Below are positions 47,211 through 53,236 of a DNA stretch of 64,000 nucleotides, one piece after another. The stretch is taken from assembly GCF_013122565.1 (NCBI RefSeq), contig NZ_CP053258.1, one strand, 5' to 3'. The number at the start of each line of letters is the position of its first letter. Within the stretch, counting starts at the first letter, position 1. This DNA comes from Escherichia coli (lineage in GTDB: Bacteria; Pseudomonadota; Gammaproteobacteria; Enterobacterales; Enterobacteriaceae). Below the pieces are notes generated by a model. It searched no databases, was not told where the DNA came from, and saw nothing but the letters and a program-made list of their open reading frames with translations. Position numbers and translations under genes: made by a program.

Positions 47211-49472
47211 TTACCCCCGACGCAAATTCTGCGCCGCCTGCACCATGTTCGCCAGTGCCGCGCGGGTTTCTGGCCAGCCGCGCGTTTTCAGGCCACAGTC
47301 CGGGTTGACCCACAGGCGCTCTGCCGGAATGCGTTTTGCCGCTTTCTTCAGCAAGGCTTCAATCCATTCCACGCTCGGTACGTTTGGCGAGTGAATGTCA
47401 TAGACGCCTGGACCGATTTCATTCGGATAATCAAACTCTTCGAACGACTCCAGCAACTCCATGTCAGAACGCGAGGTTTCGATGGTGATGACGTCTGCGT
47501 CCAGCGCCGCAATCGAATCCATGATGTCGTTGAACTCGCAATAACACATGTGGGTGTGGATTTGTGTGTCATCTTTCGCCACGGCGGCGTTGATACGGAA
47601 GGCCTCTACGCCCCACTGGAGATAGGCATCCCAGTCGCTACGACGCAGCGGTAAACCTTCGCGCAGCGCCGGTTCATCAATCTGGATGATGCCAATTCCT
47701 GCGGCTTCCAGGTCCGCCACTTCATCACGCAGCGCCAGCGCAATTTGTTTGGCGATGGTTTCACGGCTGACATCTTCACGCGGGAACGACCAGCAGAGAA
47801 TGGTCACCGGGCCAGTCAGCATCCCTTTCACCGGTTTATCAGTCAGAGATTGCGCATACTTCGCCCACTCCACGGTAATCGGTGCCGGGCGGCTAACGTC
47901 ACCAATGACAATCGGTGGCTTCACGCAGCGGGAACCGTAGCTCTGTACCCAACCGTTTTGCGTAAAGACAAAACCGTCGAGGTGCTCGCCAAAGTATTCC
48001 ACCATGTCATTACGCTCAGCCTCGCCATGAACCAGCACATCCAGTCCCAAACGTTCCTGCTCAACAATGGCCTGCTTGATATGTTCCGCAATGCCCGTGC
48101 GGTAGTTGTTAGCGTCGAGATTACCCTTTTTGAAATCCAGACGCAGGGTACGAATTTCCGTAGTTTGCGGGAAAGAACCAATCGTGGTGGTCGGCCATGC
48201 TGGGAGTTTAAAACGCGCACGCTGGGCTTCAGCACGCACTTCATAGACATTCGCACGCTGACTGTCCTGAGCGGTGATCGCTGCCAGACGCTTTTCCACC
48301 GCCGGATTATGTACGCGGGTTGAGTGACGACGCGCCTGAATCGGGGCGCTCCACTCTGCCAGAGCTGCCGTGTCACCACTGTTCAGCGCATCGCGCAGCA
48401 GTGCCAGTTCATGGCATTTTTGTAGGGCGAAGGCAAACCAGCTTTTCACTTCTGCATCAAGACGCGTTTCCACGCTCAGGTCGATGGGGCTGTGCAACAG
48501 TGAGCAGGAAGATGCCACCCACAAATCGCGTTTGCCGACAATGTCCTTAATTTGCGCATATTTCTCGGTAAGATCGGCGCGCCAGACGTTACGACCATTG
48601 ATCAGACCCGCAGACAGCAACCAGTCAGAAGGCAGGCGCTTGTGCAGTTCAGCAACGTCATCTTTACCATGTACAAGGTCCACATGCAGCCCCTGAACAG
48701 GCAGCGCAGTAATCGTGTCGAGGTTTGGCGTTACGCCTTCAAAATAAGTGGTCAGCAGCAGTTTCACCTGGCCCTGGAGCGCGTCGTAAGCGGGTTTGTA
48801 TGCGTCCAGCCACGCCTGCGGTAGTTCCAGTACCAGCGCGGGTTCGTCGATCTGTACCCACTCAATGCCGCGTTTTGCCAGTTCTGCCAGCACTTGCTGA
48901 TAAACCGGCAGAATGTCGTTCAGCAGGCTCAGGCGGTCAAATTGTTCACCTTTCACTTTCCCCAGCCACAGCCAGGTAACCGGCCCCAGCAGCACAGGTT
49001 TCACCTTGTGGCCCAGCGCCAGCGCCTCGTCCACTTCGTCCAGCAGCTGCGTCCAGGTCAGTTTGAACTGTTGGCCTTTAACGAACTCCGGCACCATGTA
49101 GTGATAGTTGGTGTTAAACCATTTGGTCATTTCCGCTGCCGCCGCAGGTTCGCCAGTCGGCGCACGTCCACGACCAATACGGAACAGGGTGTCGATATCT
49201 ACCGAACCATCTTTGTTCTGATGACGCGCCGGAACGTTACCCAGCAGCAGACTGGTGGTCAGTACATGATCGTACCAGGCAAAATCGCCCACCGGCAGCA
49301 GGTCGATACCCGCTTGCTTTTGTTGATCCCAGTGACGAGCACGCAATTCACGCCCTACCGCCAGCAGTTCTTCACGCGTGGAGTTCCCCGCCCAATAACT
49401 CTCTTGCGCTTTTTTCAGCTCGCGACGCAGGCCAACGCGAGGGAAACCGAGGGTGTGATTAAGAATTGTCAT
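47211..49472 (-). CDS. metE: Cobalamin-independent methionine synthase
   Basis: 753-aa [32 protein letters not shown]. Confidence 0.97.
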
Positions 49473-49577
49473 TATATGCCCCTTATGGAATTTTTAGTAT
49501 TTAGCCGTCCAGATGTTTACACATCCATAATTGGCGGTTACTGTATATTCCTCAAGCGCAAATTATTCATGCCGAAG

Positions 49578-49590
49578 TGAAGGACTTTCA
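49578..49590 (+). promoter_or_regulatory. MetR-type binding site (TGAA-N5-TTCA) overlapping metR start
   Basis: tgaaggactttca in the metE-metR divergent intergenic region. Confidence 0.5.
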
Positions 49591-50543
49591 TGATCGAAGT
49601 AAAACACCTGAAAACGCTACAAGCGTTGCGGAACTGCGGCTCGCTCGCAGCCGCTGCGGCGACGTTGCATCAGACGCAATCCGCCCTGTCTCACCAGTTT
49701 AGCGATCTGGAACAACGCCTTGGCTTCCGGCTATTTGTGCGTAAGAGCCAGCCGCTTCGCTTTACACCGCAGGGAGAAATCCTGTTGCAACTGGCAAACC
49801 AGGTGCTGCCGCAAATCAGCCAGGCACTGCAAGCCTGCAATGAACCGCAGCAGACGCGTCTGCGCATTGCCATTGAGTGCCATAGCTGTATTCAGTGGCT
49901 GACGCCCGCGTTAGAAAATTTCCATAAGAACTGGCCGCAGGTAGAGATGGATTTTAAATCGGGCGTGACGTTTGACCCGCAGCCTGCGTTGCAACAGGGC
50001 GAGCTGGATCTGGTGATGACCTCCGATATCCTGCCGCGCAGTGGCCTGCATTATTCGCCGATGTTCGACTATGAAGTGCGTCTGGTGTTAGCACCTGATC
50101 ATCCACTGGCGGTGAAAACGCGAATCACGCCGGAAGATCTCGCCAGCGAGACGCTGTTGATTTATCCGGTGCAGCGTAGCCGACTGGATGTCTGGCGGCA
50201 TTTTCTTCAGCCGGCAGGCGTCAGCCCGTCACTGAAAAGCGTCGATAACACCTTATTGTTGATTCAGATGGTTGCCGCGCGGATGGGTATTGCCGCGCTA
50301 CCGCATTGGGTAGTAGAGAGTTTTGAGCGCCAGGGTCTGGTGGTGACCAAAACCCTGGGCGAAGGCTTGTGGAGCCGACTGTACGCCGCCGTGCGCGATG
50401 GCGAGCAGCGTCAGCCGATTACAGAAGCATTTATTCGCTCAGCGCGCAATCACGCCTGCGATCATCTGCCGTTTGTGAAGAGCGCGGAGCGACCCACTTA
50501 CGATGCACCCACAGTGAGGCCAGGATCACCAGCGCGCCTGTAA
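49590..50543 (+). CDS. metR: LysR-family transcriptional activator MetR
   Basis: 317-aa [39 protein letters not shown] (HTH) + LysR substrate domain. Confidence 0.96.
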
Positions 50544-51330
50544 TAAACGTTGGCCAGTGCGGCTGTTGGTGCCAGATAGCCAGGTTTACCAGCAGCCCTG
50601 CCGGAACGTGCATATTATTCATAATGCCCAGCGTTCCGGCGTCTACTTGGGTTGCGCCGTAGTTCCACATAAAGTAGCCAATCCCGGAAGCCACCACGCC
50701 AAGAAACACCAGAATGCCCCATTGCAACGTGGTTTGCGGCATTTTCTGCGCATTTCCCAGCAAGAACCATGCAATTACCGCCACCAGGAACGCGCCAAGA
50801 TAGAACCACGCAAAGGCGTTATGCTGCGGCATCGGGCGAGTTTCCATCAGGCGTTTGTAACCCACCATGCCGATGGCAAAAGTGATATTGGAGAGTTGCA
50901 CCAGCAACAAGCCAGTCCAGAAATGGTCGGTGACCTGATCATAGCGAATAATCCCGGCACCAATCACCGCCAGCAAGGCGCTAAAAGCATAGCCCCAGCG
51001 CAGACGGCGCTTACTCATGATGTCATAAATCAGCGTGATGTAGAGCGGCGTCAGCACGGTGAACAGCAGCAGCTCGGAAACCGTCAGGTAGAGATAGGCG
51101 CGGAAACTCAGCATATACATCACGCCAAGCTGCATCGCGCCCACCAGCATATACAGGCCGACCGTTTTCAGGCTATTGCCACGGGTACGCAGAAACGGCA
51201 GAAAAACGAGTGCCGCCAGGCCAACGCGCACCAGCACGGCAAAATAGCTATCGACGTGCCCCGCAAGGTACTCGCCATAAAAACTAAAGGAGAAGGCCCA
51301 CAAAATCGTGGTGATGATAAGTAGCGCCAC
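50431..51330 (-). CDS. yigM: EamA/DMT-family inner membrane transporter YigM (biotin transporter BioP)
   Basis: 299-aa ten-[29 protein letters not shown]; 3' end overlaps the metR 3' end by 113 nt. Confidence 0.85.
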
Positions 51331-51405
51331 AATGGAAAACTCTTTGATTAACGAGTATCCATTGTAGCGAAGTATCAGGTTGACAACTGACCAAATAAAG
51401 AACGA

Positions 51406-52206
51406 TTACGATAAATAGAGTTTACGCAGATAATGCGGCACCGCGTCGTCGGCATTAGTACCAATCACTTCCAGCTCGGGATGAAGGTCTTTCAGACGCT
51501 GGTGCGCACTGCCCATAATGCAGCCTTTCCCCGCCATCGACAGCATTTCGGCATCGTTCATCCCGTCACCAAACGCAATACAATCCTTCAGGCTGTAGCC
51601 CAGTTTCTTCGCCACCGCTTCCAGCGCATGGCCTTTTGAAACGCCGCCCGCCATCACTTCCAGACAGGTTAAGGTAGAGAAACTGACGTTGACGCGATCG
51701 CCCCAACGAGCGTTAATCGCCTGCTCCAGCGGCAGCAGTTGTTCATGGGAATCGCAGGTGAAGAACACTTTGCTGACGCCTTCCGGCTCCAGTAATCCAG
51801 GCTCATACAGCGCATATTTGAACACCGCTTCTTTAAAAAAGCGCATCTCTTCCGGGCGATGGCGATTCATAAACCATTCGTCGTCGCGATAAACGTTAGT
51901 AATGATGTCCGGATTGTCGTTGACTACGCCAAACAGATCGCTGGCAATGTCGCGATCCAGGTTATGAGCAAAAATCAGATTACCATCCAGATCGTGAACG
52001 CGCGCACCATTGGAGGTAATCATGTAAGACTTAATCTCCAGATTATCGCGAATTTGCCCCACATCAACGTGGTGACGACCGGTCGCAAACACAAAGTTGA
52101 TGCCGCGCGCGGTGAGCAGCTTCAGGGTTTCTTTGGCGTAAGGGGATAACGTATGGTCGGGAGAAAGTAACGTGCCATCTAAATCAGACGCAACAACCTG
52201 GTACAT
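51406..52206 (-). CDS. yigL: HAD-IIB (Cof-like) sugar/pyridoxal phosphate phosphatase YigL
   Basis: Start set at MYQVVASDLDGTLLSPDHTL (266 aa); GDGMNDAEML motif. Confidence 0.9.
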   Translation of the reverse strand: MYQVVASDLDGTLLSPDHTLSPYAKETLKLLTARGINFVFATGRHHVDVGQIRDNLEIKSYMITSNGARVHDLDGNLIFAHNLDRDIASDLFGVVNDNPDIITNVYRDDEWFMNRHRPEEMRFFKEAVFKYALYEPGLLEPEGVSKVFFTCDSHEQLLPLEQAINARWGDRVNVSFSTLTCLEVMAGGVSKGHALEAVAKKLGYSLKDCIAFGDGMNDAEMLSMAGKGCIMGSAHQRLKDLHPELEVIGTNADDAVPHYLRKLYLS

Positions 52207-52213
52207 AAGAAAT

Positions 52214-53236
52214 TTAAACCTCTGTAGAGCGGTTTCCGCTGGGTGAGTTATGCCTGTTGAAAAAATCAACGATGGCGTGGAGCGCGACTGAGCGCATTGC
52301 GTCCTTTTCAAAAAGGATCTCATGGTAAGCACCTTTAATTACCAACGGCCGTCCTCCTTCGACAGGATGGCCCGCGGCGGTGCGGAGTTCACAAAAACGG
52401 TCATGCATGCGGTTATCCACCACGCGTTCCTCTTCAGCCTGCAAGAGAAGCGTTGGCGTGGCGTCATCACCCGCACCGGCTAACACCTGTTCGCCAGCCA
52501 GAATACTTTCGCGTACCCAATGGTAGGTCGGCCCACCGACGCGAATCGTTGGGTCATCAGCATAGAAGCGTAAGTTACGTCGATATCGCTGTCTGCTGTG
52601 GGTCAGTACGTTGATAGCAAACGGCAACGCGCGCCAGCGCCCGGTGCCTATTGCATAGCCATCACGGAAACGTGGATGCGCTTCGGCCCAGTTGAGGATC
52701 TGCCGTGCCATAAATGACGGCATACGAATCACGATCCCAAACATTGGCGCAGTTAGCGCAATGGCGTCACATACACCTGGATGGCGTTGCAGAAATAATG
52801 TGGAGATCGCACCGCCCATCGAGTGCGCCAGTATATAGCGTTTACGCCACGGACCGGGCTGAACCTCCTGTTGCCAGAATGCCGCCAGATCATCAACATA
52901 ATCATTAAAGCGATTAACATGCCCGAGATGCGGATCGGCTAACAGGCGACCGGAACGTCCCTGCCCGCGATGGTCGATGATTAAGACATCAAACCCCAAA
53001 TGGAACAGGTCGTAGGCCAGTTCCGCATATTTTACGTAGCTCTCAATACGCCCCGGGCAGATGACTACCACCCGGTCATGGTGCTGTGCGCGAAAACGGA
53101 CAAAGCGCACCGGAATGTCATCCACACCAGTAAATTCTGCTTCATCACGCTGACGCCAGAAATCAGTCAGCGGTCCCATGGTAAAAGCAGCAAACGCGTT
53201 TTCTCTTGTTTCCCAGTCTTTTTGCTGCTGAAACAT
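52214..53236 (-). CDS. pldB: Lysophospholipase L2
   Basis: 340-aa ORF with alpha/beta hydrolase GHSMGG nucleophile motif. Confidence 0.95.
   Translation of the reverse strand: MFQQQKDWETRENAFAAFTMGPLTDFWRQRDEAEFTGVDDIPVRFVRFRAQHHDRVVVICPGRIESYVKYAELAYDLFHLGFDVLIIDHRGQGRSGRLLADPHLGHVNRFNDYVDDLAAFWQQEVQPGPWRKRYILAHSMGGAISTLFLQRHPGVCDAIALTAPMFGIVIRMPSFMARQILNWAEAHPRFRDGYAIGTGRWRALPFAINVLTHSRQRYRRNLRFYADDPTIRVGGPTYHWVRESILAGEQVLAGAGDDATPTLLLQAEEERVVDNRMHDRFCELRTAAGHPVEGGRPLVIKGAYHEILFEKDAMRSVALHAIVDFFNRHNSPSGNRSTEV

Follow-up and report, generated by a model that had tools for sequence, protein, structure and literature searches.

The metR and yigM Genes

The window, which is the whole 64,000-nt stretch of Escherichia coli DNA analysed here (contig NZ_CP053258.1 of RefSeq assembly GCF_013122565.1), carries metR and yigM as convergent neighbours. 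On the plus strand, the metR open reading frame (ORF) occupies positions 49590-50543 and encodes MetR, a LysR-type regulator of methionine synthesis of 317 amino acids (aa) with the C-terminus PGSPARL. Its TAA stop codon is read at 50541-50543, and a second in-frame TAA stands immediately behind it at 50544-50546 (ctg taa taa acg). On the minus strand, the ORF of yigM, also named bioP, spans 50431-51330 and encodes a 299-aa biotin transporter of the EamA/DMT type that ends in DCALSE. It starts with GTG at 51330 and stops with TAA, which appears as TTA on the plus strand at 50431-50433. The original prediction held that these two ORFs overlap by 113 nt at their 3′ ends and, by both the ORF list and the sequence, the shared interval of 50431-50543 is exactly 113 nt on both strands. 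Within it, the first codon positions of metR and yigM oppose each other, while positions 2 and 3 of metR oppose positions 3 and 2 of yigM, respectively; the wobble base of either gene faces the second codon base of its partner.

Both partners are real protein-coding genes, with recognizable Pfam domains and the names metR and bioP in RefSeq. In MetR, the HTH_1 domain covers residues 5-63 and the LysR_substrate domain residues 86-288. The N-terminal 92 residues are identical to the structure available as PDB entry 5fo5, and the regulatory domain of Neisseria MetR (PDB 4ab5) can be aligned with residues 87-296. YigM matches the Pfam EamA domain, with the best stretch at residues 139-275, and the function of BioP has been described (PMC5120140, PMC4049904).

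The overlap is already known, both as annotation and in print. In the RefSeq record of K-12 MG1655, bioP lies at 4011076-4011975 on the plus strand and metR at 4011863-4012816 on the minus strand, with an identical overlap of 113 nt, and the RefSeq annotation of strain 730V1 has the same overlap. It was described by Côté et al. (2016; mBio, PMC5120140), who found that a metR deletion mutant behaves much as a yigM mutant does: it is synthetic sick or lethal with bioA and is inhibited by MAC13772, an inhibitor of BioA. The authors attributed this phenotype to the concomitant disruption of yigM through the overlap, and it shows that the yigM sequence lying within metR is needed for BioP function (PMC5120140). 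The constrained codons, the transcript ends and the phylogenetic extent of the overlap were not analysed in that study (PMC5120140) and are added here.

Conservation of the Overlap

The 2.1-kb region containing both genes matches 5,425 of the 5,426 complete E. coli genomes. A shorter query of 153 nt, comprising the overlap with 20 nt on each side, is found in 5,423 of the 5,426 at an identity of at least 96.7%, and both genes are annotated under all of the sampled matches to it. Beyond the species, a scan restricted to one genome per species yielded 80 Enterobacteriaceae loci, with YigM identities of 81-100%. In all 80, the 1,741 nt between the starts of yigM and metR can be aligned with no gap.

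The overlap measures 113 nt in most of these 80 species. In species with Leu or Val at YigM residue 264, the metR stop is shifted and the gene extended by one codon; the first base of this stop pairs with the first base of YigM codon 264. Other departures also occur: metR ends five codons early in two loci (L021 and L041), yigM carries a premature stop in one (L033), and a similar truncation is seen in Salmonella YigM protein clusters of 284-285 aa.

The arrangement also extends to two other families. Yersinia has an overlap of 113 nt (YigM 299 aa, MetR 317 aa) and Chimaeribacter one of 116 nt (299 and 318 aa), with 98 nt in a Dickeya-like locus (299 and 312 aa) and 95 nt in Pectobacterium (299 and 311 aa). 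Among the full-length YigM proteins listed for the lineages with an overlap, almost all have 299 aa, and a MetR of 317 aa with a YigM of 299 aa is the rule. Across the E. coli genomes, the 80 species and these four loci, the ORF overlap is thus no product of a strain-specific frameshift or a lost stop. With both stops read directly from the sequence and the arrangement conserved, the claim that one piece of DNA encodes both C-termini, one on each strand, is confirmed, and no annotation slip is involved.

Constraint within the 113 Nucleotides

Sequence diversity, taken as the mean pairwise difference per alignment column over the 80 species, is approximately 0.4 at codon position 3 and 0.03-0.05 at position 2 outside of the overlap. 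Against this background, the overlap resolves into two halves and a short core between them. In the first half (50431-50483), MetR codons 281-298, which form the conserved end of its regulatory domain, dictate the sequence, and YigM codons 283-299 with the yigM stop are their antisense. Variation accordingly falls on position 2 of YigM, equivalent to position 3 of MetR, while YigM position 3 is almost invariant. The synonymous diversity of MetR opposite the YigM tail is 0.287 compared with a background of 0.385, a marginal drop (6th percentile) that could reflect weak selection on the YigM tail.

In the other half (50497-50543), the roles are exchanged. YigM codons 263-278, encoding the end of transmembrane helix 10, dictate the sequence, and MetR codons 303-317 with the metR stop are antisense to them. 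Here, variation is found at YigM position 3, which is MetR position 2, at 0.43 compared with 0.42 in the background, and opposite the MetR tail YigM shows undiminished synonymous diversity (at the 53rd percentile of the background windows).

The core of approximately 13 nt (50484-50496) places MetR A299-E300-R301-P302 opposite YigM W279-V280-A281-P282. These four MetR codons are frozen at all three codon positions, synonymous sites included, against a background diversity of 0.38 at position 3. Ala299 is encoded by GCG in 80/80 species, Glu300 by GAG in 75/80, Arg301 by CGA in 79/80 and Pro302 by CCC in 80/80. Moreover, MetR residue 303 varies, but only between codons beginning with A, which keeps YigM Trp279 intact.

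The same partition is seen in the proteins. The amino acid diversity of MetR is 0.073 over residues 1-280, 0.056 over 281-298, 0.006 over 299-302 and 0.462 over 303-317; that of YigM is 0.125 over residues 1-262, 0.204 over 263-278, 0.030 over 279-282 and 0.315 over 283-299. Purifying selection on both frames is therefore clear only over approximately 13 nt, and in the other 100 nt a single frame at a time looks constrained. The original expectation that the overlap constrains both proteins holds for MetR 299-302 and YigM 279-282, but elsewhere in the 80 species one protein dictates and the tail of its partner varies freely.

Stop Codons and C-Terminal Tails

Each stop codon is embedded in conserved residues of the opposite protein. 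The yigM stop is read from the complement of MetR Phe281-Ile282 (TTT ATT); on the yigM strand, both of the Phe codons yield a stop, TAA or TGA, provided that the next base is A. For metR, the stop complements YigM Ile263 together with the first base of residue 264 (Thr). Because the stops sit in the partner's conserved residues, the protein lengths stay constant at 317 and 299 aa and selection on the tails is not needed to explain them. Stops in the antisense frame occur at 0.047 per codon in the long ORFs of the window, so that the chance of running on past the cores is 0.49 for 15 codons and 0.44 for 17. The length of the overlap is thus a matter of chance read-on once the cores abut; the part that is not chance is the abutment of both cores and its conservation over three families.

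The AlphaFold2 model of YigM has ten helices and a mean pLDDT of 85.8, with residues 286-299 below 50. A model of MetR built from 24 close orthologues reached a mean pLDDT of only 44 and was set aside. The MetR tail is probably disordered as well, judging by the limits of homology, given that the Pfam match ends at residue 288 and the alignment to 4ab5 at residue 296. Together, the natural truncations, the shorter tails of orthologues, the YigM model and the domain limits point to two tails that can be dispensed with and are probably disordered. Nothing about the YigM tail alone follows from the metR deletion phenotype, since such a deletion, presumably made to the Keio design, would take out part of YigM helix 10 as well. 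The YigM tail also keeps a Q-T-A-D-x-R-x-R...S-E pattern. The conservation of MetR yields this pattern automatically, and a function of the tail is conceivable.

The functional ends of the two proteins, MetR through SAERP302 and YigM through residue 282, are encoded back to back and share approximately 13 nt. Ribosomes would then read on into the antisense of the partner's conserved core, because the cores abut without a spacer or terminator. The resulting tails, MetR 303-317 and YigM 283-299, would be translated as probably disordered passengers under low constraint, and their sequences would change along with the synonymous sites of the partner.

Transcript Ends

Neither a consensus scan, nor a scan for hairpins with a U-tract, nor folding of the two 3′ regions revealed a canonical intrinsic terminator for either gene. 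Downstream of the metR stop there is no hairpin with a U-tract, the local fold having a z-score of -1.4, and an Rfam scan of 49300-51600 gave no match at E ≤ 1. A hairpin followed by GTTTATT lies at approximately 50548 on the minus strand, within the yigM coding sequence. As there is no terminator between the stops, both full-length mRNAs must extend into the coding region of the partner.

Base composition offers candidate sites at which these transcripts may be terminated. Past its stop, the yigM transcript runs antisense to metR and includes a putative Rho loading region at 50313-50391 (minus strand), where C makes up 0.37-0.38 and G 0.21-0.22 of 78-nt windows. The metR transcript past its stop, antisense to yigM, has a putative counterpart at 50622-50760 (plus strand), with C at 0.32-0.33 and G at 0.21-0.24. 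Such C-rich, G-poor 3′ regions are typical of antisense RNA and, on composition, would be compatible with Rho loading.

For the yigM strand, Adams et al. (2021) reported a region of Rho termination with its best coordinate at K-12 4011704 on the plus strand (PMC7815308, supplementary file 2). This corresponds to approximately position 50702 of the window, inside yigM and 271 nt ahead of its stop. Coverage upstream and downstream was 98 and 21 without bicyclomycin (BCM) and 300 and 326 with it (p = 1.3e-12), in a call made for the yigM strand only, from cells in LB, at low coverage and with 800-nt windows that take in the 3′ third of yigM and antisense metR (PMC7815308). The Term-seq 3′ ends in supplementary files 1 and 3 of the same study hold no entry for metR or yigM (PMC7815308), and the SMRT-Cappable-seq supplements are likewise without one for either gene. 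Taken together, the two mRNAs would probably each end inside the partner gene, by Rho-dependent termination once translation stops.

Relatives without the Overlap

Outside of the lineages described above, both genes occur without an overlap. In Serratia marcescens, they are convergent with a 36-nt spacer (YigM 286 aa, MetR 314 aa). The spacer is 327 nt in Gibbsiella, where the proteins have the same lengths (286 and 314 aa), and 148 nt in Pantoea alhagi (281 and 307 aa). In two Erwinia genomes, a DUF1456 gene lies between yigM and metR, with YigM and MetR of 287 and 312 aa in one and 284 and 313 aa in the other. Over these five loci, YigM thus ranges from 281 to 287 aa and MetR from 307 to 314 aa, and the YigM proteins named for Erwinia, Pantoea and related genera have 281-291 aa among those listed. 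The orthologues are only 3-18 residues shorter than the proteins of the overlapping lineages and carry tails of their own. The YigM proteins end in WVAPKQIG, WVR and similar sequences, and the antisense tail of the E. coli type is absent from them. Two of the spacers were folded, those of Serratia and Erwinia toletana, and both form stable hairpins on the yigM strand (z = -2.1 and -3.5); by folding, a comparable element is absent from the window.

Close relatives lacking the overlap, which the original prediction had counted as evidence against itself, are therefore found at the level of families, in Serratia, Gibbsiella, Erwinia and Pantoea. These cases show the overlap to be dispensable, not unreal. 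The junction is identical in the Enterobacteriaceae, the Pectobacteriaceae and part of the Yersiniaceae, and the overlap is missing in the Erwiniaceae and in the Serratia/Gibbsiella group. The Erwiniaceae are sister to the Enterobacteriaceae, and the Yersiniaceae include Yersinia as well as Serratia. On this accepted family tree, the most economical history would be a single origin with two or more later separations. More distant YigM homologues, at 49-51% identity, do not adjoin metR and are uninformative about the ancestral junction.

A single step, tandem duplication of the overlap, would suffice to separate metR and yigM. When the 3′ end of yigM was compared with the antisense of the MetR tail of its own genome, no significant remnant of such a duplication appeared in the non-overlapping genomes (p = 0.16-0.79). 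Values for complementarity were 0.10-0.42 in the E. coli register and 0.25-0.28 in other registers, again with no significant trace. An AGVP motif in the MetR of Erwinia toletana and approximately 101 extra nt in Serratia, a figure near 113, are no more than suggestive of duplication.

Alternative Explanations

The evidence above favours, at a probability of roughly 80%, a genuine and ancient tail-to-tail overlap between two real genes, in which the tails are passengers. A different reading is that the overlap is kept as a regulatory device, a convergent excludon in which collision of polymerases, or cleavage by RNase III of a duplex of at least 113 bp, lowers expression of the partner. Such a device would tie methionine/S-adenosylmethionine (SAM) status to the uptake of biotin, a conceivable physiological link in that three steps of biotin synthesis use SAM.

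Several facts speak for this possibility: the two genes are not separated by any terminator, the arrangement is conserved over three families, and bioP-metR is listed among the 165 convergent excludons of E. coli in the ExcludonFinder catalogue of 2025, drawn from RNA-seq coverage (PMC12288877). In addition, an antisense effect has been demonstrated for a comparable tail-to-tail pair, mscL-arfA (PMC10070815). However, the supplementary tables of a p19 double-stranded RNA (dsRNA) capture study (PMC7373196) list neither metR nor yigM nor bioP, a weak negative in that their expression may have been low there. Nor did the papers searched yield a case in which expression of metR or yigM lowers that of the other. 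Of the claimed transcriptional interference or antisense pairing between the mRNAs, overlapping transcription is documented as a catalogue entry only, and a regulatory effect is conjectural.

Furthermore, Serratia, Gibbsiella, Pantoea and Erwinia hold both genes without the overlap, with a stable hairpin behind yigM in Serratia and Erwinia toletana, and since these genera manage without it, such regulation is not required. Stops and cores lock one another, so that mutations can hardly separate the genes, and this explains the conservation well enough. A regulatory device is thus unlikely to be what maintains the overlap, and its fullest form, a switch under selection that links methionine/SAM status with biotin acquisition, is quite improbable. 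If the switch were real, methionine limitation would relieve MetJ repression and raise metR transcription, which would run antisense through the last third of bioP. Transcription of bioP would in turn run antisense into metR, with biotin uptake tuned against SAM-dependent biotin synthesis, and the Serratia and Erwinia lineages would have swapped this coupling for a hairpin terminator. In a weaker version, the stops, each embedded in the other gene, would act as an evolutionary lock, and the locus would then offer a clean natural model of the persistence and resolution of antisense overlaps.

It has also to be considered whether both C-terminal tails are functional, so that all 113 nt would be truly dual coding and selected in both frames. 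The near invariance of 317 and 299 aa in the overlapping lineages is what such selection would produce, and the somewhat low synonymous diversity of MetR opposite the YigM tail (at the 6th percentile, as above) points the same way. Val296 codons that create a stop in YigM are also rarer where codon 297 starts with A (1/19 compared with 10/61), a small difference given without a significance test. Yet the invariance of length follows from the stops complementing conserved residues of the partner, and the amino acid diversity of the tails is 2.5 to 6 times the background, while the YigM synonymous sites that face the MetR tail are as free to vary as in the rest of the gene. There are natural truncations and orthologues with short tails, and the tails are either modelled with low confidence (YigM) or lie outside of the known domains. 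Functional tails throughout are accordingly very unlikely, and the passenger reading of both tails is retained.

Finally, the original prediction allowed that one of the C-terminal extensions is not translated as annotated, but nothing supports this, the stops being unambiguous and conserved. An annotation artefact, in which one gene ends earlier in vivo and its extension is a 3′-end over-call of the kind that affects many long database overlaps, might be read from the best Rho coordinate lying within yigM ahead of its stop, but is largely refuted and highly improbable, because the stops are set by the sequence alone with no earlier one in frame, 5,423 E. coli genomes and three families share the ORF ends, which are therefore no strain-specific frameshifts, orthologues beyond the overlapping lineages carry tails of comparable length past the same core motifs, and BioP function is lost on deletion of metR, so that the yigM sequence within metR is needed (PMC5120140).

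Implications for the Locus

What is added here to the published overlap is that dual constraint is limited to approximately 13 nt, that the tails are passengers whose lengths are set by conserved residues of the partner, and that the overlap is ancient yet dispensable. More generally, a long annotated coding overlap need not signify a long stretch of dual constraint, as 113 nt reduce in this case to approximately 13 shared nt and two passenger tails. In practical terms, standard whole-ORF deletions cannot remove metR and yigM/bioP independently, as shown in the literature. Such a cross-effect of deletion has been documented for metR and bioA (PMC5120140), and phenotypes assigned to metR or yigM/bioP mutants in genome-wide screens, for example those based on the Keio collection, need to be checked.

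Comparison with Known Systems

Only for the convergent orientation did Pallejà et al. (2008; PMC2478687) consider that overlaps of more than 60 bp could be genuine. The pair resembles the conserved long convergent overlaps of that study and of Rogozin et al. (2002), as cited there, in exceeding 60 bp, involving well-characterised genes and being conserved in several genomes. The overlap table of Pallejà et al. does not contain metR/yigM (PMC2478687). Their 54 candidates are for the most part conserved in very close species only (PMC2478687), whereas metR/yigM spans the Enterobacteriaceae, the Pectobacteriaceae and part of the Yersiniaceae. Misannotation by 3′-end extension, which forms group iii of that study, was considered for the pair and rejected, as 317 and 299 aa are the rule and the extension is conserved.

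Likeness to the convergent excludons lies in the 3′-overlapping transcripts of neighbouring genes, bioP-metR being itself a catalogued case (PMC12288877). In mscL-arfA, however, a 3′ untranslated region opposes a coding sequence and the regulatory effect has been measured (PMC10070815), while in metR/yigM coding sequence opposes coding sequence and the excludon is known as a catalogue entry. There is also a likeness to C-terminal overprinting, in that the YigM tail is an antisense reading of the conserved end of MetR and is absent from the non-overlapping orthologues. Unlike in the overprinted genes that have been reported, the tails of metR/yigM comprise 15-17 residues only and bear no sign of an acquired function. 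The locus opens no new kind of system. Most likely, the overlap arose by loss of a spacer and read-on to the next stop, as in other conserved long convergent overlaps, and it is of this known class that the metR/yigM pair is a member.

Reported termination near the yigM-metR junction

A region of Rho-dependent termination has been reported with its best coordinate at K-12 position 4011704 (+), which corresponds to window position about 50702 on the minus strand (PMC7815308, supplementary file 2). This published coordinate lies within the yigM/bioP open reading frame, 271 nt upstream of its stop codon. If termination does occur at this point, many bioP transcripts would stop short of the 113-nt overlap between the 3' ends of yigM and metR. 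On the opposite strand, direct reading of the sequence shows that metR is closed by two in-frame TAA codons in tandem (window 50541-50546).

The YigM C-terminus is itself subject to natural variation, with premature stops shortening the protein to 284-285 aa in an Enterobacteriaceae gut isolate (locus L033) and in two Salmonella enterica clusters (P0075 and P0076, of 42 and 66 member sequences). The stop in the gut isolate, at L033:3853-3855, arises from the MetR Val296 codon, GTC, and the AGG that follows it.

Sequence context around yigM

The 2.1 kb surrounding these genes (window 49400-51500) are only 98.9% identical to their top match among complete E. coli genomes, whereas YigM matches its counterpart in "Escherichia sp. 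E1V33" with 100% protein identity. The window may derive from a divergent Escherichia lineage.

The mechanical reading frame for yigL (window 51406-52332, minus strand) begins at a GTG, encodes 308 aa and enters the 3' end of pldB (window 52214-53236). Because the RefSeq yigL of K-12 is 801 nt in length, the true start is probably downstream of this GTG, and the apparent overlap with pldB is probably not real. Between yigL and yigM lies a spacer of 75 nt (window 51331-51405, minus strand), in which TTGTCA and TACAAT, separated by 14 nt, form a promoter-like pair of short spacing close upstream of the yigM GTG start; a consensus scan did not call this pair.

Junctions of relatives lacking the overlap

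In two Erwinia genomes without the overlap, a DUF1456 gene encoding a product of 158-160 aa separates yigM from metR and has the same orientation as metR (L088:3410-3886 and L090:3419-3901). Stable hairpins directly follow the yigM stop codon in Serratia marcescens (L087:3362-3397; -23.4 kcal/mol, z -2.1) and Erwinia toletana (L088:3365-3420; -28.5 kcal/mol, z -3.5). These spacer hairpins are possible terminators, absent from the lineages that carry the overlap.
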